From contig CAWCPZ010000010.1 of assembly GCA_963797635.1 (NCBI GenBank), positions 204,909 to 268,908 on the forward strand: a stretch of DNA of 64,000 nt. The letters are read 5' to 3'. The notes beneath the pieces are model-generated. The model was not told the DNA's origin, searched no databases, and saw only the letters and a list, made by a program, of their open reading frames with translations. The stretch comes from an uncultured Actinomycetes bacterium. Its GTDB lineage: Bacteria > Actinomycetota > UBA4738 > HRBIN12. How positions within the stretch are numbered: the stretch's first letter is position 1; the number at the start of each line of letters is the position of its first letter. This document shows, piece after piece, positions 1,385 through 63,857 of this stretch. Position numbers and translations under genes: made by a program.

Positions 1385-2290
1385 TATCCGCCTCCGCGGG
1401 AGATCTGTCGCCGTCGCAGGAACCAGCCGCCCGCGCCCAGCGCGGCGACCGCCACGAGGGCCAGCAGGGCGCCCATCGGAGGGCCGCCGCCGCGCGTCGT
1501 CGGCGACGCCGGCCGCCAGCGCGGTCACGGGCGAGGCCTCCACGACCTCACCGGTGGACGGATCCACCTGGGGGGAACGGTCCTTGGCGTCGTCTCCGTG
1601 GGACCCGTTCGGACCGGAGGACCCGTGGGGGGACGCGGACGCGTCGGTGCCGGGCGTCGACGTCGCACCGTCGGGTCCCGAACCGGTTCCTCCGGCGGTC
1701 CCGCCGTTCCCGTCGCCGTGCCCGCCGGTTCCACCGCCGTTGCCGTCACCGTCGCCACCTCCGCCGGGCGACGGTGGAGGCGTCGGTGACGGGGTCGAGT
1801 CCTTGCAGACGTCGTCGAACCCGAGCGCGGGCGGAGCGGCGTGCGTGGTGCCCGAGTCGCCCGAGCCCCACACCCACCCTTCCATGTCGCCGTCACCGAT
1901 CGAGGCCGAACCCGCCCCCGAACCGGCCCAGCTCCATCCGCCGGAGCCGTTCCCGTGCCAGTACCCCCAGAAATCCGGATAGGAGCCGAAGCAGTCGCCG
2001 CCGCTCGCGCCCACCCCGGCGAGCTGGCACACCGCCTGTCCACCGAACCCGAGCTGGTACTGCAGCCCGAACTGCGAGCCGGCGAGCTGCACCAGGTGGA
2101 TGCCGGTCACGCTCGATGCATCGAGGGCCACGCAATACGTCGTGGTCTGCGACCCCGTGTTCACGACGAGGGCCGCATGCGAGGCGCCGGACGCTTCAGC
2201 GGCGCACGCCGGAGCCGATCCCGCCACCGCCGGCGCCAAGGCCGGGAGGGCGAGGATCAGACCGAACGTGAGCGTCCGCAGGCGACGCAT
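1385..2290 (-). CDS. SCO2322-family secreted Gly/Pro-rich protein with a C-terminal membrane anchor; apparent frameshift near 1470
   Basis: N-terminal signal peptide (MRRLRTLTFGLILALPALAPAVAG), a conserved HAALVVNTGSQTTTYCVALD...FWGYWHG domain, then a Gly/Pro/Thr-rich linker. A neighbouring frame encodes a terminal TM helix (MGALLALVAVAALGAGGWFLRRRQ) followed by a stop, so the printed ORF probably has a 1-nt indel. Confidence 0.55.
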
Positions 2291-2293
2291 GGC

Positions 2294-3292
2294 TCAGCAG
2301 GCCCCCGTCGCCGGCGCCGGCCCCGCGACGGGCCCGCTCAGCGGGAACGGCGTGCGCAACAGCCCGGGGATCGCGCCGATCGTGGCTCCCACGTCGGGAT
2401 CGCCCTTCACGTCGCCGTCCCACGTGTAGGCCCACGCGCCGCATGCCGGGTACTGCAACGTGCGCAACGACTTCAGGCCACCGGTCGGGATCGGCTCGCC
2501 GCCGGCGATGTAGGCCTGGAGCACCAGGCCGGTCGAGTTCGCGTCGGTGGCGATGAACGCGGTCGAGTAGGACCAGCCGTCGTGGCCCGGATCGCGCACC
2601 GTCTCGAAGAACGCGAAGGGGTCCGATCCCCACGATGTGCGGTCAGCGGCAGCCAGCGCCTGCACGACGTAGGAGGTGGAGTTCGAATCCGAGGTGAAGA
2701 AGTCGGTGCCCGAACCGTCGTCGCAGTGGTCGTCGTCCGTGCCGGGCGCGTAGGGGGCATCGTAGGACCACCCACCGTCGGGGCACTGTGCGTCCAGCAG
2801 CCAGCTGGTGACGGACGTGGCGGGCTTGACCCCGGCGGCCTCGATCGCGAGGACGCCGAGCGCCTGATCGAACACCGCCGCGTCATCGATGTGCCCGTCG
2901 TTGCCGATCTGCGAACGGATCGCCTGCAGCAGGTTCGTGCCGCCGAAGGTGCGGGGGTCACGGCCGACGGCCGACGCCGCCATGACCACCTTGGCCTGCA
3001 GGCCCACGCCGGTGACGTTGCCCGCCGCCACCTGGCGGCGGAGGTAGCCGAGCGCCTCGCGCATCGCAGGGCGGCCGGACCCGGTGGCCACGAAGGCCAG
3101 GACCGCGTCGGCGGTCGACCCGATCGGTGAGAACGCCGGGATCGAGCCGTTCGGTCGCTGCATGCCGGCGATGAACCCGGTGCCGCGTTCGGCTCGCTGT
3201 TGATCGGTGAGCGCTGCCGACGCCGATGCGGGAAGCATCACGACAGCCAAGGACAAGCAGGCGGCGACGATGCGCCGAGCGTTCGGGGCCAC
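2294..3292 (-). CDS. prenyltransferase/squalene-oxidase repeat-containing secreted protein (terpenoid-cyclase-like alpha/alpha toroid fold)
   Basis: Start is GTG at 3292, preceded by the RBS GGAAAGGAG. The signal peptide is ...RRIVAACLSLAVVMLPASASA, and the body carries repeated QxxDGGW/GWSY-type motifs typical of prenyltransferase alpha-alpha repeats. The track's 2294..3340 ORF has an N-terminal extension I rejected. Confidence 0.7.
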   Translation of the reverse strand: MAPNARRIVAACLSLAVVMLPASASAALTDQQRAERGTGFIAGMQRPNGSIPAFSPIGSTADAVLAFVATGSGRPAMREALGYLRRQVAAGNVTGVGLQAKVVMAASAVGRDPRTFGGTNLLQAIRSQIGNDGHIDDAAVFDQALGVLAIEAAGVKPATSVTSWLLDAQCPDGGWSYDAPYAPGTDDDHCDDGSGTDFFTSDSNSTSYVVQALAAADRTSWGSDPFAFFETVRDPGHDGWSYSTAFIATDANSTGLVLQAYIAGGEPIPTGGLKSLRTLQYPACGAWAYTWDGDVKGDPDVGATIGAIPGLLRTPFPLSGPVAGPAPATGAC

Positions 3293-3414
3293 GAGTGGCT
3301 CCTTTCCGGGCGTCCATCGCGCCCTCACGGAACGGACCACCCGATGAGGATCGACGTCGGCGCCCGGATCGGCGCCGGCGGCCCGTCCCCGTTCCTCGAG
3401 GGTCGTTCAGCCGA

Positions 3415-3545
3415 TGCGTCGCGCAGGGCGGCCTGGCTCGCACACGTGACGCTGGTGAGCGCCGGTGTGCCTACAGTTGCGGGACAGCGCCGGAATCTGA
3501 CCGGCTTCGCCTCCGCGACGCGGTGTGTTCCGCACGCTAGCAGAC
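3415..3545 (-). ncRNA. cobalamin (B12) riboswitch in the leader of the ECF operon
   Basis: The minus-strand sequence ...GCGGAGGCGAAGCCGGTCAGATTCCGGCGCTGTCCCGCAACTGTAGGCACACCGGCGC...GAGCCAGGCCGCC matches the B12-element core (GGGAA..GGTGnnAnTCC..CnGnCCCGCnACTGT) and the 3' B12 box (GAGCCAGGnnnCC). It sits about 125 nt upstream of the GTG start at 3292, with a GC-rich hairpin (GGCGCCGATCCGGGCGCC) in between. Confidence 0.65.
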
Positions 3546-3733
3546 CCGCGCGGAGGCCCGCCACTCGTGCATGGGTTCACGGTTCCGGCCCGGCATCCGG
3601 ACCCAAGTCCCGACTTTCGACCTAGGGAATCGGGGTATCGCTGGACAGAGCCTCGGGTATAGGTTCGTGCAGAACGCACACGCGAGCCCGGCCCGGAACG
3701 CGGGTCGATCGCCGCGAAAGGAGCTTCTCCGAG

Positions 3734-5434: not shown

Positions 5435-5446
5435 CGGTGTCTCGGA

Positions 5447-6307: not shown

Positions 6308-6368
6308 CCCGACAGCTTAGGTCGTCGCGCCGCGAGCGCCGCAACCCGCCTGTGATGGGTGGGCTAGG

Positions 6369-6983: not shown

Positions 6984-7018
6984 GGGAAGGCCGCGCATGT
7001 GCCGATGCCCTGGGACAC

Positions 7019-7798: not shown

Positions 7799-7805
7799 TC
7801 CGTGT

Positions 7806-8171: not shown

Positions 8172-8222
8172 GGGTGGACGCTACCGTCTCGGGTCGGTCC
8201 CGTCCTGCGCTAGGGTCGGGCC

Positions 8223-8693: not shown

Positions 8694-8701
8694 CCCACCC
8701 G

Positions 8702-9532: not shown

Positions 9533-9585
9533 GCGTGCAGGCTACGAGGTCGGCGATGTCGTGGCGGCGGACTAGCATCGGCGGC

Positions 9586-10017: not shown

Positions 10018-10020
10018 GCG

Positions 10021-11093: not shown

Positions 11094-12179
11094 ATGGTCT
11101 TGGGTGAGGGGGAGCCGGTCGTTGACGTCGTTCGCGGCGTCGTGTCGCTGCCCGACCTGCCCGCTCCCGCCCTCACCGATCATCTCCCCGAAGGCCCCTC
11201 ATGGCGCTATGAACCGGACTGGGACGGACTGCGCGTCGTGGTGCACCGGCGTGCGGGGCACACCGTGTTGGTGTCCGACCGGGGGAAGGCGATGGACCGC
11301 TACTTCCCCGAGGTGGTGCGGCACGCGTCACGCCTTCCCCTCGACTGCACGGTGCGCGGTTCGATCGTGGTGGTTCGGCGGTCCGGGTTCTCCTTCGATC
11401 GTCTGCGGTTGCGGATCCACCCCTCGGAGGCGCGGGTCGCCGAACTCACCGAGCGCTGGCCCGCCACGCTCGTGCTGACCGACCTGCTGTCGCGCGACAC
11501 CTGGGATCTGCGGCCGTGCGACCTCTCGGCGCGGCGCTTGCTGCTGGTCTCGATCGCGGAGGATTCGGACATCCCCGCGGCCTCGGCCGACCTCGGCCAG
11601 CTGGCAGCCGGCACGCCGGTCGTCGTGACGCCGCACACGCCGTTCGTCAGTTTCGCGATCCGGTGGCTCGAGGACCGGGACGAATCCGGGCGCGACGGCG
11701 TGATCGCGCGAGCGATGGACGGGGTCACGATGGTGCGGGTGCCCAGGCTCCGAACGGCGACCTGCGTGGTGACCGGGATCCGGCGCGAAGGCTCCGGCCC
11801 GCCGCACGCCTTGCGCCTGGGGCTCTACGACGGCGATGCCCTGGTCGACGTGGGGCGGACCACGTCGCTCCGTGGGTCGAGGGAGCGGCGCGGAGCGGCG
11901 CTCGCGCTCGCAGGTCTCGAGCGTGACACCCGGGCCGTGAACGGATGGATCGACGTCCGCCCCGAGATGGCCTGCGAGGTGACGTTCGCACGGCTGCGCG
12001 GGCGACGGTTCCGATCGGCGGCGCGGTTCATGCGGTGGCTGCCGGCGATGGATCCGCAACGATGCACGCTGCAGCAGTTCGACGCGATGGCACCGCCTCC
12101 GCCGGCAGCCCGCCGACGATCACGACGTGATCCGCCTCGACGTCTGAGGCTCGCCGTCAGCGCACCACCTTCGTGTTGA
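11094..12179 (+). CDS. ATP-dependent DNA ligase (LigC-like) homolog lacking the catalytic lysines (predicted inactive)
   Basis: Start at the ATG 11094 (MVLGEGEP...). It aligns along its full length to the LigC-type adenylation and OB domains. Motif I reads YEPDWDGLR (D where the adenylated K should be), motif III reads DCTVRGSIVVV (not DGExV), motif IV reads DGVIAR (K to R), and motif V reads MVRVPR (KxK to RxP). The C-terminal ...FRSAARFMRWLPAMDPQRCT is retained. Confidence 0.7.
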   Translation: MVLGEGEPVVDVVRGVVSLPDLPAPALTDHLPEGPSWRYEPDWDGLRVVVHRRAGHTVLVSDRGKAMDRYFPEVVRHASRLPLDCTVRGSIVVVRRSGFSFDRLRLRIHPSEARVAELTERWPATLVLTDLLSRDTWDLRPCDLSARRLLLVSIAEDSDIPAASADLGQLAAGTPVVVTPHTPFVSFAIRWLEDRDESGRDGVIARAMDGVTMVRVPRLRTATCVVTGIRREGSGPPHALRLGLYDGDALVDVGRTTSLRGSRERRGAALALAGLERDTRAVNGWIDVRPEMACEVTFARLRGRRFRSAARFMRWLPAMDPQRCTLQQFDAMAPPPPAARRRSRRDPPRRLRLAVSAPPSC

Positions 12180-12835
12180 ACATCGCGGTGTCCAACGCGC
12201 CCAACTCGCGGAGCCAGATCAGGAGATGAGCCTCCATGGCGCGAGCCGCGGTGATGTCGCCCAGATCGAGGATGTCCCGCCACCCGAAGGACTCCAGGAT
12301 CGCGGTGACCTCGGCCTTGGCGTCGGCGTCGTTGCCGCACAGCGGGATCGTGTGGTCGCCGCCGGCGAGGGCGCCCGGGTCGGTCATCAGCGCCGCCGTC
12401 ATCGTGTTCCACACCTTCACGAATCGAGCCTGCGGGAAGGGCGGCCTGCAACCGTTCGCCGAGCGAATCGGTGTTGGCGACGAACAAGCTGGGCGGCCAA
12501 CCCGACGCGTGGTCGATCGGGTTGGACGCGTCGAGCACGATCGTCCCGGTGAGGTGCTCGCCCCCGGCGCTCAGCGCGGCCTCGGAGCCTTCACCGTCGG
12601 TGGCGTTCACGACGATCTCGCCGTGGGCCATCGCGTCGGCCTGGGTCGTGAGCCCGATCTCCGGGTGCTCCGCCTTCCACTGCGCGAACGGTGGGTTCCC
12701 CATGGCGTCGCCCTCGGTGCGCGCCATCAACGCCTCGACGTCGCGCGTCCCGATCACGACGTCATGGCCTTTCTGGGTGAAGCCCTGCGCCAAGGTCCGT
12801 CCGACGGTTCCCGTGCCCACGATGCCGACCTGCAT
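12157..12835 (-). CDS. NADPH-dependent F420 reductase-like NAD(P)-binding oxidoreductase; frameshifted near 12425
   Basis: The N-terminal part (MQVGIVGTGTVGRTLAQGFTQKGHDVVIGTRD...) and the C-terminal part (MKVWNTMTAALMTDPGALAGGDHTIPLCGNDADAKAEV...) are in adjacent frames. Deleting one C in CTTCCCGCA restores ...QAALPQARFVKVWNTM. Confidence 0.65.
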
Positions 12836-14848: not shown

Positions 14849-15538
14849 ATGGATACCACGACCGATCCCCTGACGCACGTGCGTGCGCTGATGGCGCGGG
14901 CCACCGGCGACGAGAAGCACGACGAGAGCACCACGTCGACCCTCGATGCCCTCTGGGTCCTCTACGACCGGGTCCTGCGCATCGATCCCGCGCATCCGGA
15001 CGCCGAGGATCGGGACCGGTTCATCCTGAGCAAGGGACATGGTCCCGCGTCGCTGTACGCGATCTTGGCGGCGAAGGGGTTCTTCCCGCCCGAGTGGCTC
15101 GACACGTTCCTCGATCACGACGGACGCCTCGGCTCGCACCCGGACCGCATGCAGGTGCCCGGCATCGAGGCTTCGACCGGCTCGCTCGGTCACGGGTTCC
15201 CGATGGCGGTGGGTGTGGCGCAGGCGTTGCGGGCGAAGGGCCGCCCGGACACCCGGGTGGTCGTCCTCACGGGTGATGCCGAGCTCAACGAGGGCTCCAA
15301 CTGGGAAGCCGTGATGCTGGCGCCCAACCTCCGCTTGGGCAACCTCACCTGGCTCATCGTCGACAACCACAGCTCCTCGTGGCCGATGGGACCGTGGGAC
15401 GCCTGGCTGCCCCCGTTCGGATGGGACGTGCGCGTCGTCGACGGTCACGATCACGACGCACTGGCGGCGGCGCTCGGGGTTCGTCACGCGGAACAGCCGG
15501 TGGCGGTCGTCGCGGACATCCCGGAGGGGGAGTGGTGA
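14849..15538 (+). CDS. transketolase, N-terminal (TPP-binding) subunit of a split transketolase
   Basis: Start at ATG 14849 (MDTTTDPLTHVRAL...). Contains ...RFILSKGHGPASLYA..., GSLGHGFPMAVG and GDAELNEGSNWEA. Its stop overlaps the next start (TGATG). Confidence 0.85.
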   Translation: MDTTTDPLTHVRALMARATGDEKHDESTTSTLDALWVLYDRVLRIDPAHPDAEDRDRFILSKGHGPASLYAILAAKGFFPPEWLDTFLDHDGRLGSHPDRMQVPGIEASTGSLGHGFPMAVGVAQALRAKGRPDTRVVVLTGDAELNEGSNWEAVMLAPNLRLGNLTWLIVDNHSSSWPMGPWDAWLPPFGWDVRVVDGHDHDALAAALGVRHAEQPVAVVADIPEGEW

Positions 15539-16415
15539 TGGCCGCCATGCGTGAGGCGTTCGCCGCCACGGCCACCGACCTGCTCGAAGCCGACGAGCGG
15601 GTGGCCATCGTGCTCGCCGACATCAGCGAGACCCTGCTGAGCGCGCGCGATCCGGCACGATCCCCTTCGCGCCGTCAACGTGGGGATCGCCGAGCAGACC
15701 ATGGTGGGCGTCGCGGCCGGGTTCGCCATGGAGGGGTTCCATCCGATCGCGCATTCGCTGTCGCCGTTCATGGCCGAGCGCCCCTACGAGCAATTGAAAC
15801 TCGACTTCGGCTATCAGGGCCTCGGCGGGACCTTCGTGGGCTCGGGCGGCTCCTACGACTACGCCGGAGAAGGCGCGACCCATCATTCGCCGGCGGACGC
15901 GTCGCTGATGCTCGCGATCCCGCGCATGCAGGTGCTGGTGCCGGGTCACGGACGTGAGGTGGACCAACTGCTTCGGGCGGTGGTGGCGAACGGCGAGCCC
16001 ACCTACGTGCGCACGAGCCTGGCGACGAACGACGAACCCCACGACGTGGCACCCGGCCGGCTCGAGGTGATCCGTCGCGGCGACGGACCCACGGTGGTGG
16101 CGTTCGGGCCCGATGCTCACGCGCGCGCTGGAGGCGACCGCCCACCTGGACGCCACGGTGGTGTACGCCACGAGCCTCGAGCCGTTCGACGGTGCGACGC
16201 TCCGCGAGCTCGCCGGAGACGCCCCCGACGTCGTGGTCGTCGAGCCCTGGTACGAGGGCACCGCGGCCGCCGTGATCACGGCCGTGTTCGCCGATGTGGC
16301 GGTTCGCCTGCGGTCCATCGGGGTTCCACGCCGGTTCATCCATCGCTACGGCACGTGGCAGGAGCTCGACGCCTCCTTGGGCATGGACGCCACGGGTATC
16401 CGAGCACGCCTGTGA
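15538..16415 (+). CDS. transketolase, C-terminal (pyrimidine-binding) subunit; two apparent +1 frameshifts (about 15665 and 16112)
   Basis: Three consecutive frames carry MAAMREAFAATATDLLEADERVAIVLADISETLL / VNVGIAEQTMVGVAAGFAMEGFHPIAHSL...PTVVAFGP / MLTRALEATAHLDATVVYATSLEPFDGATL...IGVPRRFIHRYGTWQEL. Deleting one C at each junction (tcccc, gggccc) restores a continuous transketolase C-terminal protein. Confidence 0.7.
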
Positions 16416-16472
16416 CGCAAGCGATCCGGTGACCCTCTCAGGTCGCCGGAGCGGGGCGTCGATGCTCCAAGC

Positions 16473-22016: not shown

Positions 22017-23091
22017 ATGGAGATCGGCCTCTACACCTTCGCGGAGCTCTACCCCGACCCGCAGACCGGGGAGACGATCAGTGCCGAGCAGCGGATGCGG
22101 AACCTGCTGGAGGAGGTCGAGCTCGCCGACCAACTCGGCCTGGACGTCTTCGGCGTCGGTGAACATCACCGGCCGGACCTGATCGTGTCCTCGCCCGCGG
22201 TGGTGCTGGCCGCCGCAGCGCAGCGCACCGAGCGCATCCGGCTCACCAGCGCGGTGAGCGTGATCAGCTCCGATGACCCGGTCCGGGTGTTCCAGGACTT
22301 CGCGACGCTCGACCTCCTGTCGGGCGGACGCGCCGAGATCATGGCGGGCCGCGGCTCCTTCACGGAGTCGTTCCCGTTGTTCGGCTACGACCTCAACGAC
22401 TACGACGAGCTGTTCGAGGAGAAGCTGAAGCTGTTGATCGCGCTCCGTGAGGACGAACGCCTCACGTGGTCGGGCCGGCATCGTTCGCCGCTGGACGGCC
22501 GGGTGGGCGTCTATCCCCGCCCCGTGCAGGATCCGCTGCCGATCTGGGTCGCCGTGGGTGGCGCACCGGAATCGGCGTTCCGCGCCGGCACGCTGGGCCT
22601 GCCGATGGCGATCGCCATCATCGGGGGCCTGGCCGAGCGGTTCGCGCCCTTCGCCGAACTCCACCACGACGCGGCGCGCCAGGCCGGGTTCGATCCCGTT
22701 CCCCCGATCAGCATCAACTCCCACGGCTACATCGCGGAAACCACCGAGCAGGCGATCGAGGAATCGTTCCCCTACGTGGCCGCGATGATGAACACGATCG
22801 GCAAGGAACGCGGCTGGCCGCCGATGACCCTGGACCAGTACGCGGCGAGCGCCACCCTTCACGGTGCGAACTTCGTCGGCTCGCCACAGGACGTGATCGA
22901 CAAGATCCTGTTCCAGTACGACGTGTTCCACCACGACCGGTTCCTGGTGCAGTTCAGCGTAGGCACGCTGCCGCACGACAAGCTGATGCGCTCGATCGAG
23001 CTCCTGGGCAAGGAAGTCGTGCCCGTCGTGAAGCAGGAACTCGCCCGCCGCCAGGCCGAGTCGCTCCGTGGCTACCAGCCGAGCGCGGTGA
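22017..23091 (+). CDS. LLM-class (luciferase-like) flavin-dependent oxidoreductase, likely F420- or FMN-dependent; 3' end uncertain
   Basis: Starts [54 protein letters not shown].... The printed frame has no stop until 23369 and would run 300 bp into the convergent ATPase gene. A stop exists at 23089-23091 in the adjacent frame, so I suspect a terminal frameshift. Confidence 0.6.
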
Positions 23092-23593
23092 CGATCTGGA
23101 GTGCGACCTCGCGGATGGAGCCGACGTTCTCGAAGGTGAGATCGCCGACGGTGTCGCCGCGGCCCTCGGCCACCTGTCGTTCGGCTTCGGCCAGGTCGTC
23201 CTGCCGTCCAGCCGTCACCGATACGGAGAGCCGGCGTTCGATCTCGTCGAAGGGGAGCGTGAGCCGGACCACCGTGAGCGGCATCGCGAGCGCGGCCCGC
23301 AGGTCGTCCACGTCGCGCTGGGTCTCCATCATGCGCGCCAGCGCGAACCGGCGGACGCCCGTGTCGTAGTAGTTGCCCACGACGGCGTCGACGTTCTTCA
23401 GCATCACGGGCATCCCCGCCCAATGGTCGCCGCCCGAACCAGGGTCGAACCAGCTCAGCCAGTCGAGGTCGATCGCGCCGTAGCGCACGCCGCGCGCTTC
23501 GAGGATGTCGGCGATCTCCTCGATCGCCGAGGTCTTGCCCGTGCCGAAGGCGCCGGTGACCAGCACGGCTTCGGCGTCGGGGCGATCGGCCAT
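23072..23593 (-). CDS. small P-loop NTPase (AAA/kinase-like ATP-binding protein)
   Basis: 173 aa with Walker A ([19 protein letters not shown]) and Walker B-like (IDLDWLSW) motifs. Confidence 0.6.
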
Positions 23594-24063: not shown

Positions 24064-24853
24064 TCAGCCGAAGAACTCCTCCAACACGGGAGCCATGGCC
24101 TCGTCCGTGACGCCGTGCGTCTGGCCCTCGAGCGTTCGGTAGCGGGCGTTGGGCAGGACCGTCGCCAACGCACGTGCCGCGTTGCGCGCCCAATCGGGAC
24201 TCGCGCCGCCGTCCATCACCAGGGTCGGCATCGTCACGGTGGCCCACCGCTCACCCTGGAGCGGGCGGCCCGTCATCGTGTCGCCCATGACCCTGCCGTC
24301 GTAGACCAGGGTGTGCGCCATCGCTTCCATGGCCGGCCAGAACGGCGCGCTCCGCATCGACGCCACGGTGTCGGCCGGCGCCGCCGCCCCCGTGGTCATG
24401 AAGTACTCGACGGCATCGCCTCGCCGGTCCCCGGCCACGAGATCGGTGAGCTGTGCCACGTAGTCCGGCGGGAGCGGGGGGCGGCTGTCGTCCACGACGA
24501 ACGGCGGTTCGTAGAGCGCGAGCCGATCGATCGGGAGGCCCCGGGATGCGGCTTCGAGCGCGAGGACGGCGCCGGAGGAGTGCCCGTACACGCACGCCCG
24601 GCCGCCGGCGACCTCGAGCACGGCCGCGAGGTCCTCCACCTCACGCTCGACGGCGTACGGCGCGGTGTCGCCGCTCGATCCACGTCCCACGACGGTCGTA
24701 GACGAACACGTCGCACCGCGCGGACAGGAGGGTCGCGAGCGGTGACATCGCCGCGGCGGTCGTGAGCGCGCCACCCACGAACACGACCGCGGGACCGGCG
24801 CCCGATCGATCGAACGCGATCGTGGCGCCGTCCCGCGACCGGACGTCGTTCAC
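24064..24853 (-). CDS. alpha/beta hydrolase; frameshifted near 24690
   Basis: The N-terminal part (MNDVRSRDGATIAFDRSGAGPAVVFVGGA...CDVFVYDRRG) and the rest (RGSSGDTAPYAVEREVEDLAAV...VYGHSSGAVLALEAA...) are in adjacent frames. Deleting one G in cgtcgtggga restores the frame. It is a paralog of the gene at 32836..33612. Confidence 0.65.
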
Positions 24854-34534: not shown

Positions 34535-36187
34535 TCAACGTTGATCGTCGTGGGTGGCGCTGACCGAGAGCAACTCGAAGGCTTCGGTCGGCTCACGCTT
34601 GCCCTTCAGGTCGGCCAGCCCCATCGGCCGCACGTCGACGATCACGTCGGGCTCGGTGTTGACCTCGTCCAGGGTCCGGCCGGCGATCGTGATGTGGCCC
34701 GGGGTCGAGAGGGTCTGCAGACGGGCGGCGACGTTGGTCGTGTCGCCGATCACCGAGAACGACCGTTGCGACCCGGCGCCCACGTTGCCGATCACGGCCA
34801 CCCCCGTGTTCACGCCGACACGGAACCGCGGCCAGTCCTCGGACGCGCGCACCTCCGTGGAACGGTCGCGGATCGCGATCGCCGCCCGCACCGCTCTCGC
34901 CGCATGGTCGGGCTGGTCGCCGAGCGCGTTGAACACCGCGAGCACGGCGTCGCCGGCGAACCGTTCGATCAATCCGCCCTCCTCGTCGACGACGAACGGC
35001 ACCACGACACCCCAGTACGCGTTCAACATCTCGATCACCTCTGCCGCCGGCCGGTCCTCGGAGAACGTGGTGAACCCGGAGAGATCCGCGAACAACACGG
35101 TGACCTCCTGCTCCTGCCCGCCCAGCTGCGCGAGCTCGGGTTCGGCGTCGAGACGGTCGGCCAGGTGCGGGCTGACGTACTGGCGCAGCAGCCGGTCCAT
35201 CCGCGCGAGCTCGCGCGCCGAGTCCGTCATGACGGCCACCTGGTCGCCGGTGAACCCTTGCTGACGGAGTTCCTCGCCGGTGCTGCCGAGGGTCCCCGAG
35301 GCGTCGGCACGCACGAGCTCGGCGAGCGCGGCCGATTGCCGATGGTCGAGCCGCTCCAAGGTGCGTTCCAGGTAGATGCCGCCGAAGGTTCCCGACGCGG
35401 TGCGCGCATGGCGGTACTCGTGCCGGGCAGCGAGCACGATCGTGGCGAACGCGATCGCCATCAGCACGTGCCACTCCCACCACGATGCCTGCCACGCGCG
35501 CCCGAACGCCATGGCGATCAGGGCCTCGGCGAGGAACACGAACGCCACCGCGACGGCCAGCGGAAGGGGGCGGCGGCGTGTGCGATAGATCCGCAGGTAC
35601 CGCCACGCCGCGAACAGGTAGGCCGCCACGGCGAACGGCAGCAGGACCAGCAGCCACGGCGCGCGTTCGGACTCGATCACGCGATCGAGCGGTCCGAACC
35701 CGGCCACCGAGGCCGTCGCCCACACGATCAACACGACGACCAGGCCCACGCGCATCGGCGCCTGCAGCCGACGCAGCGTCGCCTCGGTGCGCTCGTCCAT
35801 CTCGATCGCGGAGAGCGCCGCGAACCCCGCGGCCAGGATGAGTCCGGCGGGGGTGGCCAGCACGAACCCGCCGTTCGGCCCGTCGAGCACCACGCCGGGT
35901 GTGGCGAGCGCGTGCAACGCCAGGAACCCCGCGCTCGTGAGCAGCACCATCGACACCAGGAAGAGCCGTTCGTCGCCGCTCCGCCGCGCGACCTCGCTCA
36001 CGATCAGGCCGAGGGCCACGTTGAGCAGGGCGACGCCGAACACGAGCCAGAAGTGCGATGGATGGTGCTCCCAATGCACGTCGAGCGACGGGAACCCCAG
36101 CATCAGGGCCAGTCCCGCGAGCGGGACGATCAGTGCGGCCGCGAGGAACCAGGGTGAGGGCCCCGCGGTGCGGGACGCGTGTTCCAT
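34535..36187 (-). CDS. membrane-anchored class III adenylate/guanylate cyclase
   Basis: N-terminal 6-TM domain followed by a cyclase homology domain (VTVLFADLSGFTTFSE...RFAGDAVLAVF...VGVNTGVAVIGNVGA...SVIGDTTNVAARL). Same strand as, and immediately downstream of, the HK at 36230. Confidence 0.8.
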   Translation of the reverse strand: MEHASRTAGPSPWFLAAALIVPLAGLALMLGFPSLDVHWEHHPSHFWLVFGVALLNVALGLIVSEVARRSGDERLFLVSMVLLTSAGFLALHALATPGVVLDGPNGGFVLATPAGLILAAGFAALSAIEMDERTEATLRRLQAPMRVGLVVVLIVWATASVAGFGPLDRVIESERAPWLLVLLPFAVAAYLFAAWRYLRIYRTRRRPLPLAVAVAFVFLAEALIAMAFGRAWQASWWEWHVLMAIAFATIVLAARHEYRHARTASGTFGGIYLERTLERLDHRQSAALAELVRADASGTLGSTGEELRQQGFTGDQVAVMTDSARELARMDRLLRQYVSPHLADRLDAEPELAQLGGQEQEVTVLFADLSGFTTFSEDRPAAEVIEMLNAYWGVVVPFVVDEEGGLIERFAGDAVLAVFNALGDQPDHAARAVRAAIAIRDRSTEVRASEDWPRFRVGVNTGVAVIGNVGAGSQRSFSVIGDTTNVAARLQTLSTPGHITIAGRTLDEVNTEPDVIVDVRPMGLADLKGKREPTEAFELLSVSATHDDQR

Positions 36188-36229
36188 CGAGCCATCATGC
36201 AGGGTCGTCGCGGTCGTCCGCATCGCCCA

Positions 36230-40542: not shown

Positions 40543-42469
40543 ATGGAGTCCGCGTTCGAAGCACCCACGGCCGAGCTGTTGCTGGACACGAAGACGCCGG
40601 CGGAGCTGGCGCTCTCGCCCGACGGATCGAAGCTGGCGTTCTCGTTGCACGCGACCGTCGCCGACGTCGGGTCCTATGTCCCGTGCGATCTCTACGTGGT
40701 GGATACCGGATCCGACGCCGACCCGGTGCAGCTCACCGACGGGGCGTTCGCCGACGTGCTGCCGGCCTGGTCGCCCGACGGTTCCCGGCTGGCGTTCCTG
40801 TCCGATCGCATCACGTCCGGGCATCAACTGCCGTACACGATGCCGGCCGGCGGTGGCGAACCGACGCTGGCGGCCACGCTCGACCGGTTCGGCCGAGAGC
40901 GTCGCGTGGTCGGGCGACGGGAACCGTCTCCTGGTGCTCGCCGCCGATCCCGGTTCCTACGGGCTGGACTGGGGAGCGCGTGCGGTCCGTGGCGCCGAGC
41001 CCGAGTCCGATCCGATCGTGCGGCGGCCGGGCGATGCGCGGCGCCGACTGTTCCTGATCGACCTCGGATCCGGAGACGTCACGGAGGTGGGTCCGCCCGA
41101 CCTCAGCATCTGGGAGGTGGACTGGGACGGCGATCACACCGCGGTGGCGGTCGTCGCCACCGATCACACGGGATCGGGCTGGTACCAGGGCGTGGTGGCG
41201 CGGCTCGATCTGCAGGCGCGCACCGCACACACGCTCTACGAGCCCGAGTGGCAGATGGAGGGGTTGGAACGCTCGCCCGACGGCACCCGTGCGCTGATCG
41301 TGGAGGGATACGCCAGCGACCATGGGCTGCTCGCCGGCAGCATCATGGTGATCGACGTCGCGACCGGCGAGACCTCCGATCCCTGGCCCGACCTGCAGTC
41401 GGTGGGCCTGGCGTCGTGGTGCGACGACGATTCGATCTGGTACGCGAGCACCGACGGCACCGGGAACGCCTGCGGCCGCATCTGGCTCGACGGCCGGCAG
41501 GAGGAACGCTGGCGCGACGACGCGTTCATCGGCGACGCCGTCACCACCCCGGCCTGCGTGATCAGCGAGGGTGCCGCCGACGTGTGGACCACCCACCAGG
41601 CGCACGCCACACCGCCCGAGCTCGCGCGGTTCGACCACGACACCGGTTCCTGGGTGCGCCGCACCTCGTTCAACGACCACATCGTGCGCGGGCGCGTGTT
41701 CCCCGACGCACGCACGATCCGGTGGATGGGCGAGGGCGACGTCGAGATCGAGGGCGTGTTGATGACGCCGCACGGCGCGGAGGGGCCGCTGCCGCTGATC
41801 GTCGGCGTCCACGGCGGTCCCACGTGGAACTGGGGGTCCTACTTCTCCGATTCCGAACCGAACGCGGTGCTGCTGGCCTCGGCGGGCTACGCGTGTCTGC
41901 TGCCGAACCCGCGCGGGAGCATCGGGCGCGGCCACGTCTTCAACCAGGGCGTGATCGGCGACGGGGGCGGGATCGACTTCCGCGACATCATGGCCGGGGT
42001 CGACCACGTGATCGCCGAGGGCATCGCCGACCCCGACCGGTTGGGTATCGCGGGCTTGTCCTACGGCGGCTACATGGCGGCGTGGGCGGTTGGCCAGACC
42101 GACCGGTTCGGCGCGAGCGTCGCGATGTCGGTGGTGTCGAACTACCTCTCGTTCCACCTCACCTCGGAGGTGTGGTGGTACGACCACGCGATCCTCGAGG
42201 GCGACTGGCACGACCCGGCGAGCCAGTACATGGACCGCTCACCGGTGACGCACGCACACAAGGGGTCGACACCCACGCTGATCCTGCAGGGTGCGATCGA
42301 CCGGTGCACCCCGGTGAGCCAGGCCGACGAGCTGTTCACCGCGATCGCCGAGACCGGCACCGAGGTCGAGCTGGTGGTCTACCCGCGCGAAGGCCACGTG
42401 CCGCTCGAACGCGGCCACGCCCTCGATGCGATCCGGCGAACGCAGGAGTGGTTCGACCGCCACCTGTAG
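40543..42469 (+). CDS. S9 family peptidase (prolyl oligopeptidase/dipeptidyl-peptidase-like: beta-propeller + alpha/beta hydrolase); frameshifted near 40890
   Basis: The N-terminal 115 aa (MESAFEAPTAELLLDTKTP...WSPDGSRLAFLSDR...) are in the frame of track ORF 40525. The remainder (SAESVAWSGDGNRLLVL...GLSYGGYMAAWAV...catalytic GxSxGG, D, H) is in the frame of track ORF 40676. One extra C near GACCGG. Confidence 0.75.
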
Positions 42470-42888
42470 TCGATCAGGTCGCGATCCGCGGCAGCGGGGC
42501 GTTCCTGCAGGACCCAGCCGTTGCCGTCGGGGTCGCTGAAGAACACCCATGAGTTCCACGGGCCACCCTTGCCGTCGGCGAGCCCGTCCTCCGTGAAGTG
42601 CTGGACCGGGCTGACGTCGACGCCGCGGCCGGCGAGTTCCTCGCGAGCGGCTTCGATGTCGTCCACGACCAGCTGCGGCCCCTGGAGCGAACCGGGTTCG
42701 GACCTGGTGATCCCCGTGCCCACCATGATCGAGCAGGCCGAACCCGGCGGCGTCAGCTGGACCACCCGGATGCTCTCCATCGGCGAGTCGTCGACATCGA
42801 CGACGAAGCCGAGCTGGTCGGCGTAGAACGCCTTGGCGCGGTCCACGTCGGTCACGGGCACGGGGAGCAACTCGAGCTTGTAGTCCAT
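42379..42888 (-). CDS. VOC family protein (paralog of 50603..51034); C-terminus possibly frameshifted
   Basis: Start at ATG 42888 (MDYKLELLPVPVTDVDRAKAFYADQLGF...). It is 27 aa longer than the paralog, with a non-conserved tail that overlaps the convergent peptidase gene. Confidence 0.65.
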   Translation of the reverse strand: MDYKLELLPVPVTDVDRAKAFYADQLGFVVDVDDSPMESIRVVQLTPPGSACSIMVGTGITRSEPGSLQGPQLVVDDIEAAREELAGRGVDVSPVQHFTEDGLADGKGGPWNSWVFFSDPDGNGWVLQERPAAADRDLIDYRWRSNHSCVRRIASRAWPRSSGTWPSRG

Positions 42889-44399: not shown

Positions 44400-45070
44400 T
44401 CAGGAGGGCTGCGGTTGCTCGCGATGCGTGACGTGGGCGATCAGCACCACGATGACGGTGACGATCCCGATCGGGATGCCGGTCATGACGAACCCGCCGA
44501 AGGGCACGCCCACCGGATGCAGCGACGCGAGGAGCGTGAGACGCCGAGCGTCGTTCGCGGCGTCGTAGCCCGCACCGCCCAGCGATTCCACGAACGAACC
44601 GAACGCGGCCAGCGCCAGCAACGTCAGCACCATGCCGCGGAACAACGCGATGCCCGAACCGGGAACCGGATGCCACCGGAACGCGAGCGCGGCGAACAGC
44701 GCCAGGCCGATCACGCCGGTGAGCAGATGGAACACGGCGTGTCCTCGCGCCTCACCGACGGCGACGAAGGCCGCGGCGACGAGCGCGGCGACGCCCAGGA
44801 CGGCGTCGATCGTGAACGCGATGCGCGCGAGCCGTTCGCCGCGAGCGGGGTCACGCGGACCGTCTCCCCGGCTCGCGGTTGCGGGTTCGTTCCAGGCCGA
44901 TCACCAGGAGCACGGCGCCGAGCCGCGAGCAACCCCAGCGTCGCCAGCGGGAACGAGGAGGACCCGGCGAGGGCCGTGGAGGCCCCGACCAGGAGGCATA
45001 CGCCTCCAGCCGCGATGAGGATCCGGTCCGATCGCATGCTTCGAGTGTGCGCGGGCAGGGCCTTCATCAC
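44400..45070 (-). CDS. hypothetical polytopic membrane protein; apparent frameshift near 44880 joins track ORFs 44711..45070 and 44400..44735
   Basis: N-terminal MMKALPAHTRSMRSDRILIAAGGVCLLVGASTALAGSSSFPLATLGLLAA (frame 1) continues in the next frame as ...GERLARIAFTIDAVLGVAALVAAAFVAVGEARGHAVFHLLTGVIGLALFAALAF... All hydrophobic helices; no known motif. Confidence 0.4.
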
Positions 45071-46600: not shown

Positions 46601-46855
46601 ATGCCGGAGTTCATGGACGTGCACCGTGGCATGGAAGGGATCACGCCCGAAGGGCTGCTGGAGGCACACCGCGCCGACCTGGCGATCCAGGACGACGAGG
46701 CGTGCGTCTTCAAGCACGCGTGGGCCGATCCTGCGACCGGGCTCGTGTGGTGCCTGTCCGAAGCGCCGAACAAGGAAGCCGTCATGAAGATCCATGAGCG
46801 TGCCGGGCCACCCGACGGACGAGGTCTACCCGGTCCCCGTTCAGGCCTGATCGCG
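46601..46855 (+). CDS. SCO4226-family nickel-binding-like small protein (DUF4242); frameshifted near 46808
   Basis: Starts MPEFMDVHRGMEGITPEGLLEAHRADLAIQDDEACVFKHAWADPATGLVWCLSEAPNKEAVMKIHERAG. Removing one C in GGGCCACCC gives HPTDEVYPVPVQA and a stop at about 46855, which is the canonical C-terminus of this 85-aa family. Confidence 0.6.
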
Positions 46856-47093: not shown

Positions 47094-48243
47094 CTAGGCC
47101 CTCGCCGAGCAGACCGCTCGTTCGAACACGTCACGAAGATCCACGAAGAGGTCCGGCAGCGTCGTCGGAGTGATCTGTCGGTTCACCGACACCACCGCCG
47201 AGCGACGCCCCGATCGGGTCGCCGCCATGAACTGCGTGAACCCGGACGTGTTCCCCGTGTGTCCGAACACGACCCCGCACCGCGTCCGGTACCGGAAGAC
47301 GGCGAGCCCGGCACGGTTCTGCCCGGGCCCCGTCGGTTCGGATCCGCCGTCGACGAAGGCGAACTGCGCCTGCTGGGTCGTCGCATCGAACAGCTGCCGG
47401 CCGATGTATCCGCGGATGAACCGGTTCTGGTCGAGTGGCGTGGACACGATGCCGCCGGAGGCCCACGACCAGCCGCTGGCGAGGAAGTTGGTCACGTCAT
47501 CCGGGGGATGATGGCCCTTCCACTGGTAGCCGTGCATGAACGGCGGTGGCATCGGAACACCTCGCGGAAGGGTGGTGTTCGCCAGTCCCAGCGGTCCGGT
47601 CACGAGGCGGGCCAGCAACTGCTCGTATCGCTCTCCCGTCGCGGCCTTGGCCATCAACCCGACCACGATGTTGTCGGAGTTCGAGTACTCGTAGGCACTG
47701 TCCGGCGGGAAGCGCAGGTCTTCATGCCTGAGATAGCTCAACAGCTTCCGGGGCGACGGGGCGTCGTGAGGGCTGGCGATGACCGCGTCGATGAAGGCCG
47801 TTGAATCCAGCACGTCGGGGATGCCGCTCGTGTGGTGGAGGGCCTGAGCCAACGTGACGGCGTGCCAGTCCGGGTTCGTCCAGGGAAGGAGCTCGCCGAC
47901 CGTGTCGTCGAGGGACATCACGCCCTCCTCGACCAGCGAAAGCGCCACGCCACCGCTGTACGCCTTGGCGGTGCTGGCGATCCGCATGTGCAACCACGGC
48001 CGCATGGGAGCGCCGGTCTTCAGGTTCGAGACACCGGCGCGGAACACGAGTCTGCGGTCGCCTCGTTGGACCACCGCGATCACGCCTGGCGGACCGTCGG
48101 GCCGAGCCACCAACGCGTCGATCCCCGCCTGCAATCGGTGGTCGGCGTAGTCACGCCCCGCCGAGGCCGAGGCAGGCGATGCGGTCGCGATGACACCGAC
48201 TGCGAGCGGCGATGATCAGGAGTGCGCGGGCGGGGGAACGCAT
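47094..48243 (-). CDS. serine hydrolase (beta-lactamase/D-Ala-D-Ala carboxypeptidase family) with a signal peptide; frameshift inside the signal peptide near 48190
   Basis: Mature region ...IASTAKAY... (SxxK), ...YSNSD..., ...HTGNTSG... (class C/PBP4-like motifs). The upstream frames give MRSPARALLIIA / LAVGVIATASPASASAGRDYADHRLQAGIDALV; one extra base separates them. Confidence 0.75.
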
Positions 48244-51062: not shown

Positions 51063-51830
51063 CTACCGAGCGTACGTCACGCGGCTGGTTGTCGCTGCCC
51101 GGTATCCCAGGTACACGGTGCCGTTGCGGAAGCGACGCTCGTCCAGCAGCTCGAGGTCCAGCCGAACGTCGTCGGGGAGCCAAGGGTTGCCACCGCCCAC
51201 GATCACGGGGGCGACGAGGATCCGGAACTCGTCGACCAACCCGGCGCGGATCGGGTAGCGCCTGATTCACCGAGCTTGTGGCTTCCCGGTACCCCAGGTG
51301 CACCGTGCCGTTGCGGAAGCGACGCTCGTCCAGCAACTCGAGGTCCAGCCGGACGTCATCGGGGAAGCCAAGGGGTGCCACCGCCCACGATCACGGGCGC
51401 GAGAGGCACCGGTAGCGTCCACTAACCCTGCGCGGATGGCGTGGGCAGCGAGGCCGGGGCCACCGATGCCGATGTCCGCGCCGGACGATGCCTTCATCTC
51501 CCGGATGGCGGCGGGATCGAACACGGACTCGAGACGCGTTCGCTCGCTGCGAACCTCCGTGAGCGTCGTGGAGAACACCACCTTGTCCGCCGCGCGCCAG
51601 ATCTGCTGGTAGTCCCGCAGGTACGGCGCCTCGGCGGCCAGGTCCATCGTCTCCCAGGCCACCATCACCTCGTACATGCGTCGCCCGTACAGGTAGGTCC
51701 CGACCGGTCGTTCGAGATCGTTGACGAAGGTGTGCACCTCATCGTCGGGCTCGGCCCAGTCGAAGTTCCCGTCGCGGTCGGCGATGTAGCCGTCGAGCGA
51801 GGCGAGCACCGAGTAGATCAGGTCAGCCAT
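51063..51830 (-). pseudogene. dihydrofolate reductase family (RibD C-terminal domain) gene interrupted by a degenerate tandem copy of its own 3' end
   Basis: The body (MADLIYSVLASLDGYIADRDGNFDW...IGIGGPGLAAHA) runs to about 51440 and then reads through a decayed copy of the C-terminal segment to a stop at 51267. An intact, in-frame copy of the C-terminus (IRAGLVDEFRILVAPVIVGGGNPWLPDDVRLDLELLDERRFRNGTVYLGYRAATTSRVTYAR*) follows at 51063..51260. Confidence 0.55.
51092..51440. repeat. imperfect tandem direct repeat (2 x about 170 bp, roughly 90% identity over the first 115 bp) covering the 3' coding end of the DHFR-family gene
   Basis: Copy 1 starts near 51092 with ccggtatcccaggtacacggtgccgttgcggaagcgacgctcgtccagcagctcgaggtccagccgaacgtcgtcgggga.... 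Copy 2 starts near 51277 with ccggtaccccaggtgcaccgtgccgttgcggaagcgacgctcgtccagcaactcgaggtccagccggacgtcatcgggga.... Copy 2 carries indels that break the frame. Confidence 0.6.
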
Positions 51831-51841
51831 GGATGAGGGTC

Positions 51842-52306
51842 CTACGAGTGTGGGTCCGGGGCCCACCCCGTGCGCTCGACCGACCACGTGAGCTCGCCGG
51901 TCGTGCACGTGCCGCCGCCCTGTGCGTAGCTCATCTCCAGCGTTCCTTCGCCGTGGCGCCACCGCAGGGTGCCGGCCACCAGGTCGCCGCTCTCGGTGAT
52001 CGCGAACGAGCGGTCGTGGTCCAGCCGGCGTCCGGGATAGGCCAGCCAGGAGATGCCGATCTCATCACCGCCGCCTTCGTCGCACGTGAACGCCAGCCGC
52101 TCGAAACCGAGCTTGCGCAAGAAGAGCCGTCCGTTGTCCCGCCGCAGGACGCTCGCGACGACGGTGTCGCCGGTCGAGAGTTCGCCGCGGTACTTGATGA
52201 TCCTGGCGGCGGACGCGGTCGCCGGCAGCGCGATCAGCACCAGCAACGCCGCGGCGATGCCGACCGTGGCGCGTCGTGCGAACGTGCGGTCAGTCTTGCG
52301 CTGCAT
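51842..52306 (-). CDS. hypothetical secreted protein
   Basis: Start at ATG 52306 (MQRKTDRTFARRATVGIAAALLVLIALPATASAARIIKYRGEL...), which has a signal peptide. About 130-aa mature domain with conserved Cys residues. Lies immediately upstream of the DHFR-family gene on the same strand. Confidence 0.5.
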   Translation of the reverse strand: MQRKTDRTFARRATVGIAAALLVLIALPATASAARIIKYRGELSTGDTVVASVLRRDNGRLFLRKLGFERLAFTCDEGGGDEIGISWLAYPGRRLDHDRSFAITESGDLVAGTLRWRHGEGTLEMSYAQGGGTCTTGELTWSVERTGWAPDPHS

Positions 52307-52778: not shown

Positions 52779-52805
52779 CGCGCGAACCTAGCATCCGGAT
52801 CAGCG

Positions 52806-55059: not shown

Positions 55060-55154
55060 GGGAGCTCCTCACCTCTATTGTCCTAGCATCATAGGACATT
55101 CGTGCAAAGCGAGAGGTTCGATCGCCGCCGCATCACCGTCCACGTCGCATACGC

Positions 55155-56162: not shown

Positions 56163-56265
56163 CACGTCATGGCCGCATTGCGCCGCCGCGCACCGGCGAC
56201 CTAGACTCGCCCGCACGTCGGCCCGGTGGCCGGGTCGCATGCAGCCCGACGGAGGGAGCGCGCCG

Positions 56266-58446: not shown

Positions 58447-58485
58447 ACCGTAGAGTGGCACGTCCGACCCAAGGGGGACGCTGCG

Positions 58486-62490: not shown

Positions 62491-62496
62491 CCTGGC

Positions 62497-62970
62497 TCAG
62501 GGCATCGGCACCGGGATGCGGACGTCGGTCTCGCCGAGGATCCAGTGCTGCGTCGCGATCGCCTCGTACATGCGGAACTGGCGCGGCTCGGTGACGTCAT
62601 CGCGGCCCCAGGCCGAGAGCCCGTGTTCGACCGATGTCCGCGAGAAGATCTCGATGGCGTCGGCGAGTTCGTCGGCGGAGACCTGGTGCGCGACGGCCTC
62701 GAGGTAGACCGCTTGGCGCTCGGCCGGAGTGGTGCGCGAGTCGTAGATCACGATCGCGATCTCGGGCCGAGTCTCGATGTTGCGGGAATGGCGCGTCTCC
62801 GGCGACGAGACCCACAGGAACCGTCGGTGGTCGTCGGTCGCGAACCACACCGGGTTCGCCCACGGCGTGCCGTGCGCGTCGGCCGTCGCCATGGTCATGA
62901 ACCGGTTCGCGTCGATCACCGCGGTGACGACGGACCAGTGGTCGTTGGGGTCGCTCGTCGACATGCTCAT
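62497..62970 (-). CDS. pyridoxamine 5'-phosphate oxidase family (FMN-binding split barrel) protein
   Basis: Start at ATG 62970 (MSMSTSDPNDHWSVVTAVIDANRFMTMATADAHGTPWANPVWFATDD...). Confidence 0.65.
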   Translation of the reverse strand: MSMSTSDPNDHWSVVTAVIDANRFMTMATADAHGTPWANPVWFATDDHRRFLWVSSPETRHSRNIETRPEIAIVIYDSRTTPAERQAVYLEAVAHQVSADELADAIEIFSRTSVEHGLSAWGRDDVTEPRQFRMYEAIATQHWILGETDVRIPVPMP

Positions 62971-63303
62971 CCTTTCGCGGGCAGCGTGCCGGCGTAGCCC
63001 ACGCCGACACGAACCCACCGCTCGAGTTGGCGCTTGGTGCGGACGGCATCGTCGTCGACTCGCAGCCAGCCCTGCATCTGCCGTCCGCGCATCTCCATCG
63101 GTTGGACGCCCTTCGAGGCGAGCAAGGTCTCGGAGGTCTCGGGATCGGCACGCACCAGCAGGCCGCCCTGGCCGCTGGCGGCCACGGCCATGTTCCCGCC
63201 GATCAGGAACGCGAGGCCGCCGAACATCTTCTTCTCGGTCAGGTCGGCTTCGCCCTCGATCAGCGCTCCGGATCCTGGCGGCGAGGTGCTCGTCGTAGGC
63301 CAC
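62967..63303 (-). CDS. TfoX/Sxy N-terminal domain-containing protein; frameshifted near 63255
   Basis: The N-terminus MAYDEHLAARIRS (frame of track ORF 62497..63303) joins to ...EADLTEKKMFGGLAFLIGGNMAVAASGQGGLLVRADPETSETLL...MEMRGRQMQGWLRV (track ORF 62967..63227). Its stop overlaps the downstream start (ATGA). Confidence 0.6.
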
Positions 63304-63366
63304 GGCTCGATGCTACGACGGTGCTCGACCGTGTGTGTTCGCGACCGGATCGGGCCTCATCGTCGA

Positions 63367-63857
63367 TCAGTGATCGCTGGGTTCCGCCTGTTCCTCGGCG
63401 AAGTCGAACAGGTCGAGTTCGCCGGGCGACCGTCCCTCGGCGGTGAGCAGCGCTGCCGCTTCCGCGCGGTGCTGCGTCCCGTGGTTCACGACGTGCACCA
63501 GCATCTGCCACACGGGCACGCCTTCGTGGATGTGATCGACGAAGCCGTCGGTCACGGTCGGCAACCAGGCATCGACCGCCGACCATTCGGTGTCCCAGCG
63601 ATCGCGCAGGACGTCGACCGGCAGCAGGGGTTCGAGTTCCGGTTCGGGCCGCTCGCCGAATTGGCCGAATCCTGGAAGGCGTGGCGCCATCGCTGGGAGG
63701 CGCCGAGGTGATGGACGAGGATCGCGCCCAGCCCCCACTCGCCCACGACGTCCGTCCGCGCCCACACGGCAGGGTCCACTCCGTCGAGAACGTCCAGCAC
63801 CCGGAGCGTGGCCCATCGGTCGTAGGCGAACAGGAAACGGATCTCGTCGGCGTGCAT
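63367..63857 (-). CDS. DinB-family (DinB_2/DUF664-like) protein; frameshifted near 63665
   Basis: The N-terminus MHADEIRFLFAYDRWATLRVLDVLDGVDPAVWART...ILVHHLGASQRWRHAFQD continues in the adjacent frame as GQFGERPEPE...WQMLVHVVNHGTQHRAEAAALL.... Confidence 0.6.

Follow-up and report, generated by a model that had tools for sequence, protein, structure and literature searches.

The 64,000-nt stretch of DNA analysed here, hereafter called the window, is part of a contig from an uncultured Actinomycetes bacterium (GenBank assembly GCA_963797635.1, contig CAWCPZ010000010.1, positions 204,909 to 268,908), and in total about 20 small lesions, mostly single-base insertions, interrupt about 16 of its genes. 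We put at roughly 0.9 the probability that these lesions are consensus errors of a long-read metagenome assembly, probably one made from Nanopore reads only and left uncorrected by accurate reads. Insertions dominate among the lesions, short-read contigs of close relatives are clean at the same places, the indel load is bound to the assembly, the window and its sibling contigs share one error signature, and selection on the affected genes appears intact; this combination would not be expected of real pseudogenisation.

The gene content of the window is ordinary for actinobacterial housekeeping and signalling (adenylate cyclases, a GGDEF/EAL protein, histidine kinases, hydrolases and transporters). 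Its G+C content is 68-72% over the whole length, and its nearest relatives at both the protein and the DNA level all belong to uncultured Actinomycetota known from metagenomes of soil or sediment. A sequence-only reading of this DNA had listed 12 frameshifts, each taken to be a single-base event. Alignment of the DNA to relatives shows that all 12 are present, within about 25 nt of where they had been placed. Most are indeed single-base lesions, but the one in 63367..63857 is an 8-nt insertion and the gene at 44400..45070 carries two +1 events, not one. The suspicion that the 3' ends of the open reading frames (ORFs) 22017.. and 42379..42888 are affected was also justified, since both are aberrant; the second owes this to a +1 event at 42481, the first to a substitution at 23058 and not to an indel. 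Missing from that list are no fewer than three disrupted genes, namely a ligase gene (12104), the 5' end of a cyclase gene (36208) and a RibD_C gene (51366-51415). The lesions are given below, with L numbers denoting contigs of relatives.

1493, minus strand: extra C in the gene of a SCO2322-like secreted, C-terminally anchored protein (1384..2290); absent from L093, L092, L126 and L094.
12104, plus strand: extra G close to the 3' end of a gene for an ATP-dependent DNA ligase (10947/11094..12147) with an NCBIfam ligase match; absent from L005 and L006.
12440, minus strand: extra G (GG to GGG) in an npdG-like F420/NADP oxidoreductase gene (12157..12835); from DNA alignment to L005 and L006.
15640, plus strand: extra A, the first of two lesions in a transketolase C-terminal-subunit gene (15538..16415); absent from L005 and L006.
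16112, plus strand: extra G, the second lesion in the same transketolase gene; from DNA alignment to L005 and L006.
23058..23060, plus strand: TAG replaced by GAG in a luciferase-like monooxygenase ORF (22017..); from a multiple sequence alignment of six sibling contigs.
24685, minus strand: extra T in an alpha/beta-hydrolase gene (24064..24853); absent from the six siblings L172-L177.
31113, plus strand: extra C in the ltrA gene (30822..32070), within a microregion of 6 nt in which extra bases are also present in several sibling long-read assemblies.
36208, minus strand: extra T in the first codons of an adenylate cyclase gene (34535..36227+), masked by an alternative ATG.
40881..40882, plus strand: one surplus base (CG against C or G in siblings) in an S9 peptidase gene (40543..42469).
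42481, minus strand: extra G shortly before the 3' end of a glyoxalase-family gene; from a multiple sequence alignment with L174, L175, L177 and L085.
44872 and 44922, minus strand: one extra base at each in a membrane-protein gene (44400..45067); from alignment to L085.
46804, plus strand: extra C (C to CC) in an SCO4226-like gene (46601..46850); from alignment to L085.
48207, minus strand: extra C in the signal-peptide region of a beta-lactamase-family gene (47094..48243); from alignment to L085.
51366, 51403 and 51415, minus strand: one base gained at the first and one lost at each of the others in a scrambled stretch of a RibD_C gene (~51270..51873); from one relative only (L085).
63269, minus strand: extra C in a TfoX_N gene (62967..63303); absent from the six short-read contigs L086-L091.
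63658..63665, minus strand: 8-nt insertion GAATTGGC in a DinB-family gene (63367..63857); absent from six short-read contigs.

Several of these lesions have particular consequences. The stop loss at 23058 adds about 100 codons to the monooxygenase ORF, which then reaches 23369 and overlaps the convergent gene 23072..23593, and the orthologue in L007 ends 5 aa past the last aligned residue. The insertion at 42481 puts the true stop codon (42474-42476) out of frame, whereby the glyoxalase-family ORF runs on to 42379. The extra T at 36208 is lacking in the short-read contigs L002 and L003 and in L001 and L174-L177, and is common to L172 and L173. The inserted GAATTGGC is a near-duplicate of its flanking sequence. 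The membrane-protein gene at 44400..45067, whose frame passes from -1 to -0 and then to -2, is the weakest site, since its sole relative, L085, is itself frameshifted there. Small indels were also seen outside these genes: intergenic +1 events lie at 16467, 45182 and 59772, and other small differences from close relatives at 58481-58482, 3347 and 5440. The extra C at 16467 stands just upstream of the start of the GGDEF/EAL gene and is lacking in L005 and L006. Some of the small intergenic indels, that at 16467 for example, probably represent additional consensus errors, and natural variation may account for others.

In DNA this rich in G+C all six frames are open, so that ORF lists are useless for calling frames. 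Coding frames were therefore assigned by a codon-usage model trained on clean ORFs, by which the window was segmented into frames, and same-strand frame switches were sorted by the presence or absence of a stop and a start codon at the switch. The switches at which the upstream frame meets its stop only far downstream were the sites listed earlier together with a few extra ones. Exact lesion sites were taken from base-level indel tables made by DNA alignment to close relatives. These tables and the codon-usage segmentation were used in place of a six-frame tblastn screen with all the relatives' ORFs, which was dropped because any indel scores as a frame switch in DNA of 70% G+C. Ten extra switch candidates (19700, 33616, 34132, 46049, 49940, 51873, 52317, 53793, 54668 and 29079) were rejected as overlapping gene boundaries or noise: stop and start codons were located at each of them, and at 33616/34132, 49940 and 29079 the relatives that cover the site have the same arrangement.

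Two sets of relatives were available for comparison. The short-read contigs, from the window's species or a sister of it, comprise L093 (positions 1-11385, 98.0% identity), L005 and L006 (6.4-18.8 kb, 92-93%), L002 and L003 (32.2-40.0 kb, about 97.5%) and L086-L091 (57-64 kb, 94-97%). The second set consists of siblings of long-read style, with names of the form contig_N in ENA assemblies ERZ25039xxx: eight contigs of the same species from different assemblies. L001 and L085 are parts of one 367-kb sibling contig and cover 25-52.8 kb at about 95.5% identity; L172-L178 cover 22.1-42.8 kb, L172-L177 being 95.7-98.8% identical to the window. No assembly identical to the window was present among the relatives compared, the closest reaching 98.8%, and a megablast search of 24 kb against a plasmid collection returned only short, distant matches.

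At every lesion of the window that a short-read contig covers, at 92-98% identity, that contig is without the lesion. Conversely, across 1-18.8 kb, 32.2-40 kb and 57-64 kb, the short-read contigs show no coding frameshift of their own at places that are intact in the window. Each of the 16 insertion sites is free of the insertion in at least one relative, and 11 of them (1493, 12104, 12440, 15640, 16112, 24685, 31113, 36208, 40881, 63269 and 63658) are clean in at least two independent contigs. The events are also strongly directional: 15 insertions of a single base and one of 8 nt stand against two deletions of a single base, both of which fall within the scrambled RibD_C patch.

The long-read siblings show how closely the load follows the assembly. 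Private indels were counted in 17.4 kb common to seven of the eight sibling contigs, which come from different samples: L176 has 1, L174 3, L177 4, L173 12, L172 16, L001 23 and L175 91. Two short-read contigs that cover 4-8 kb of this region have none. The same genes range from intact in L176 to shattered in L175, and the indel load tracks the assembly and not the lineage among siblings that are 96-99% identical to the window. Insertions prevail here too (106 against 44 deletions). The positions of the errors are patchy along the contigs, which fits local drops in depth or local mixing of strains. The public sibling contigs (L001/L085, L172, L173 and L175) carry many private frameshifts, and protein collections already contain truncated and fused products of such contigs, among them a 545-aa cyclase without a Pfam match (P0041), a fused 522-aa kinase and regulator in L001, and an 884-aa kinase-cyclase fusion in L178.

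The proteins themselves are whole once the lesions are corrected. Both family matches and orthologue alignments bear out the earlier claim that each listed gene needs a change of frame for its conserved protein to be recovered. When proteins were spliced at the predicted switches, Pfam matches to Transket_pyr, Transketolase_C, Abhydrolase_6, LtrA and the SCO4226-like family crossed the junctions. In the transketolase C-terminal subunit the Transket_pyr match crosses the 15640 junction and the Transketolase_C match the 16112 junction; the LtrA match spans residues 1-355 of the 356-residue profile (E 3.8e-100) across the 31113 junction, and the SCO4226-like match covers all of its profile (1-76/76) through the 46804 junction. 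NCBIfam likewise gave an unbroken npdG-like match (1-202, over the junction) and a transketolase match.

With the extra bases deleted, 13 genes gave end-to-end alignments in a single frame, collinear with relatives at 89-99% identity and with no or almost no gaps. Corrected lengths equal those of orthologues for LtrA (415 aa), the beta-lactamase family protein (382 aa), the cyclase (564 aa), the TfoX_N protein (111 aa), the SCO4226-like protein (82 aa) and the hydrolase (262 aa). The SCO2322-like protein (301 aa) aligns gap-free to L093 over residues 1-301 at 98.7%, the S9 peptidase gap-free to L085 over 1-647 at 98.5%, and the transketolase subunit (293 aa) gap-free to L005 and L006; the ligase aligns in one frame through residue 399. 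The corrected alpha/beta-hydrolase is 98.5% identical to that of L173, and the corrected LtrA is nearly identical to the intact LtrA of L176. The cyclase has the length of P0001, the SCO4226-like protein that of its L085 orthologue, and the beta-lactamase family protein that of P0121, with 97% identity. The glyoxalase-family protein comes to 137 aa against 135 aa in L085, and the membrane protein of 44400..45067 has a corrected ORF of 221-222 aa. The spliced DinB-family protein matches the 191-aa P0241 at 98% identity over 100% of its length, and the corrected DinB-family protein is exactly as long as its orthologue.

As the sequence-only reading had held, the genes are otherwise intact. The corrected frames contain no stop codons, and their products are 97-99% identical to orthologues in amino acids, at 95-98% nucleotide identity. 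Signs of relaxed selection or decay (stops, deletions or a raised ratio of nonsynonymous to synonymous polymorphism, pN/pS) were not found in the disrupted genes, although the test has low power for lesions private to the window. Downstream of the lesion in ltrA, where the window and L001 both have the extra base, pN/pS between the two is 0.10.

The proposed course of events begins with an uncultured actinobacterial population of 70% G+C, from which a metagenome contig would have been obtained by long-read assembly, its consensus uncorrected by accurate reads. Low read depth, or the merging of reads from co-occurring strains, would then have left spurious bases in the consensus. Most of these would be single G or C because the genome is rich in G and C, and now and then a wrong base or a short duplicated stretch would have entered too. 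Each extra base would shift the frame, so that a gene caller splits or truncates the gene, while the real genes of the organism would be intact. Indels in Nanopore consensus sequences are known to produce frameshifted gene calls, and R10.4 genomes need about 40x coverage to be near-finished (PMC9262707). The ERZ25039xxx sibling assemblies are, we infer, Nanopore-only products of Flye and Medaka. Partly through their contig_N names, together with the MFD*.bin...contig_N names carried by more distant GTDB relatives, the evidence suggests that they belong to the long-read project of Microflora Danica (MFD-LR), whose catalogue is Nanopore-only and was made by Flye assembly and a single Medaka round, with no correction by short reads (PMC12313526).

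Some observations weigh against an explanation by consensus error. We infer the contribution of strain mixing and, from relatives of the window, its own platform, pipeline, coverage and polishing. The short-read relatives at 6.4-18.8 kb are only 92-93% identical and so bear on a strain different from that of the window. Three lesions are atypical, namely the 8-nt near-duplication at 63658, the stop loss at 23058 and a 188-nt duplication in the RibD_C gene, and could be genuine polymorphisms or assembly joins. Finally, independent assemblies repeatedly have extra bases within the same handful of nucleotides (31106-31113 and 36208). In the affected assemblies the sequence is locally scrambled at both places, and the short-read contigs are clean at 36208; such recurrence needs either a systematic miscall that depends on context or modification, or a real polymorphism or hypervariable site.

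Among the alternatives, errors confined to homopolymers fare best, though we regard them as quite unlikely to account for the pattern. According to this explanation a homopolymer-prone platform (454, Ion Torrent or older Nanopore) over-called the length of short C/G runs. The sequence-only reading had placed the frameshifts mostly in homopolymers of 2-4 nt and attributed them to systematic indel errors from such a platform or from unpolished assembly. That they are an artefact of sequencing or assembly and not pseudogenes stands; the homopolymer mechanism does not. Homopolymer indels are the classic consensus error of Nanopore data (PMC9262707), and four or five of the 15 single-base insertions in the window do adjoin an identical base and extend a run: 12104 (G to GG), 12440 (GG to GGG), 46804 and 63269 (both C to CC) and possibly 44872. 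Twelve of the 15 inserted bases are G or C, two are T and one is A. However, the remaining 10-11 insertions have different bases on both sides, as with the A between G and G at 15640 and the T between G and C at 24685 and 36208. Before the insertion, the runs that are extended measure only 1-2 nt, much shorter than those with which such platforms have difficulty. There is no enrichment in runs either, since by our estimate a randomly inserted base would adjoin an identical one about half the time. Moreover, the errors here are insertions, whereas homopolymer errors occur in both directions. The siblings behave likewise: of 96 private single-base insertions, 73% are G or C, which matches the base composition, and 24% stand next to an identical base. 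Window and siblings have the same error signature, and long-read consensus error through low depth, mixed strains or both appears to describe it better than miscalled homopolymers.

Traces of mixed strains are visible at several places. At 40881 the window has CG where each sibling has either C or G. At 31106-31113, in ltrA, the siblings fall into two clean haplotypes, CAGT and GTCC, each followed by GTG, and the faulty assemblies resemble hybrids of the two that have gained one or two bases. Where the monooxygenase gene ends, the siblings again form two haplotypes, with RRQA-TAG or RRVTE-TGA as the terminus; the window at 23052-23065 has the first, with the T of TAG replaced by G, and looks like a mixture of the two from which the stop loss arises. 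In the RibD_C gene, an imperfect tandem direct repeat (51089-51214 and 51276-51402, 91-93% identity, spacing 187-188 nt) duplicates the 3' end. L085, the sole sibling that covers it, has a single copy, and the junction in the window (51403-51415) is scrambled; the duplication could be a product of haplotype merging or an assembly join, or else a real recombination scar. In noisy siblings 17-50% of private indels lie within 2 nt of strain-polymorphic sites, against 12% expected, but the enrichment is modest (23% vs 12%) and many insertions are not beside known polymorphisms. Strain mixing is thus suggestive and would account for only part of the pattern.

The ltrA site also invites the thought that a minority of the lesions is real and that 31106-31113 is hypervariable or phase-variable, a contingency locus in the soil actinobacterial population. 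This we consider very unlikely. In its favour, the microregion gains one or two bases in four or more independent assemblies, and purifying selection acts on the remainder of the gene: extra bases fall inside the same 6 nt in the window, L173, L001 and L175, and the local sequence varies (CAGTC, CTCGC, CGTCC and CAGTCC), L175 having gained two bases. No extra base is present at this site in L172, L174, L176, L177 or the 87%-related L004. L176 and L004 encode an uninterrupted LtrA; the gene is broken in most siblings, and among them only L176 has it intact. In L177 and L178 ltrA is split at one and the same place, where L177 is a base short near 31137. That ltrA is an exceptionally error-prone gene was ruled out, as its counts per kb are not outlying. 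The insertion in the DinB-family gene at 63658 and the substitution in the monooxygenase gene at 23058 could be true strain polymorphisms.

Genuine recent pseudogenisation, in which relaxed selection, a small population or a mutator phenotype would have produced some 20 real frameshifts, is highly improbable. The lesions do exist in the deposited sequence, the 8-nt tandem-like insertion at 63658 and the stop-loss substitution at 23058 are ordinary types of natural mutation, and the state of ltrA in most siblings could be read in the same sense. Yet the shifted parts show no decay, and the corrected proteins agree closely with their orthologues. Bacterial mutation is deletion-biased, whereas insertions dominate here. 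A private load that ranges from 1 to 91 in the same 17.4 kb by assembly and not by lineage, with none in short-read contigs, and the low pN/pS downstream of the shared ltrA lesion argue further against it. Programmed ribosomal frameshifting or recoding at some sites, ltrA for example, is hardly credible: the clustering of extra bases within 6 nt in four assemblies and the purifying selection downstream would suit it, but five relatives lack the extra base, two of them with LtrA uninterrupted, the shift in L175 is +2 and not +1, the affected sequences differ and therefore offer no conserved slippery motif, and neither such a motif nor a conserved frameshift site was found across orthologues, which are uninterrupted at every site.

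Among known systems, the indels of Nanopore-only metagenome consensus (Flye and Medaka) are the closest counterpart to the errors that we propose. Alike are the otherwise intact genes split by 1-nt indels, a load that varies strongly between assemblies of one species and is lacking in short-read assemblies, and the close relatives named contig_N with MFD*.bin metagenome-assembled genomes (MAGs) further off. Frameshifted genes of this kind have been measured by the IDEEL test (PMC9262707), and the Microflora Danica long-read MAG catalogue checked for them through coding density (PMC12313526). The literature on Nanopore consensus stresses homopolymers, whereas here the events are mostly insertions outside runs, several of them at strain-variable positions, which points to a mixed-strain or low-depth consensus. 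Artefacts of haplotype merging offer a second likeness, in the CG at 40881, the hybrids at 31106-31113 and 23052-23065, the 188-nt duplication with its scrambled junction, and sibling indels enriched near polymorphic sites; the modest size of that enrichment and the many insertions away from known polymorphisms set the window apart.

The genome of Mycobacterium leprae is the textbook case of a pseudogene-rich genome shaped by reductive evolution. Genomes of this type share with the window a high fraction of disrupted frames. Here, by contrast, there are no in-frame stops, deletions or decay, the codon bias is kept in shifted segments, and almost all events are +1 insertions that are not common to independent assemblies of the same species.

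Two further features of the window deserve mention. A match to the cobalamin riboswitch at 3432-3505 (minus strand) scores exactly the Rfam gathering score, 31.5 bits, over part of the model (51-163). This candidate sits in the 390-nt leader of a minus-strand operon (3340..1) that codes for a secreted repeat protein outside the Pfam families scanned, the SCO2322-like protein, a membrane protein that we read as CbiQ-like, and an ABC ATPase. Compared with the 98%-identical L093, an extra A stands at 3458 inside the match; it may be another consensus error, and it may lower the riboswitch score. Synteny with the sibling 367-kb contig is broken at 52800-56171, which corresponds to 3132-6597 of L085: only the window has a GntR-family regulator, an ABC ATPase with its permease and one more gene there, and the sibling has about 3.4 kb of other genes in their place.

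The pattern belongs to a known type of data-quality problem rather than to the organism, and no biology is needed to explain it. The earlier warning that annotation of this region is fragmented holds good: by an estimate from the frame segmentation, about 16 of roughly 60 genes, or about a quarter, are split or truncated. About a quarter of the genes of the contig, and probably of the rest of the bin too, would be annotated as fragments, fusions or pseudogenes. Counts of pseudogenes would thereby be inflated, protein-length statistics distorted and protein databases polluted. Because the errors are not in runs, homopolymer-aware fixes would miss most of them; correction requires polishing with short or HiFi reads, or reference-guided frameshift correction. 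Claims of gene loss in this actinobacterial lineage should rest only on read-level evidence.

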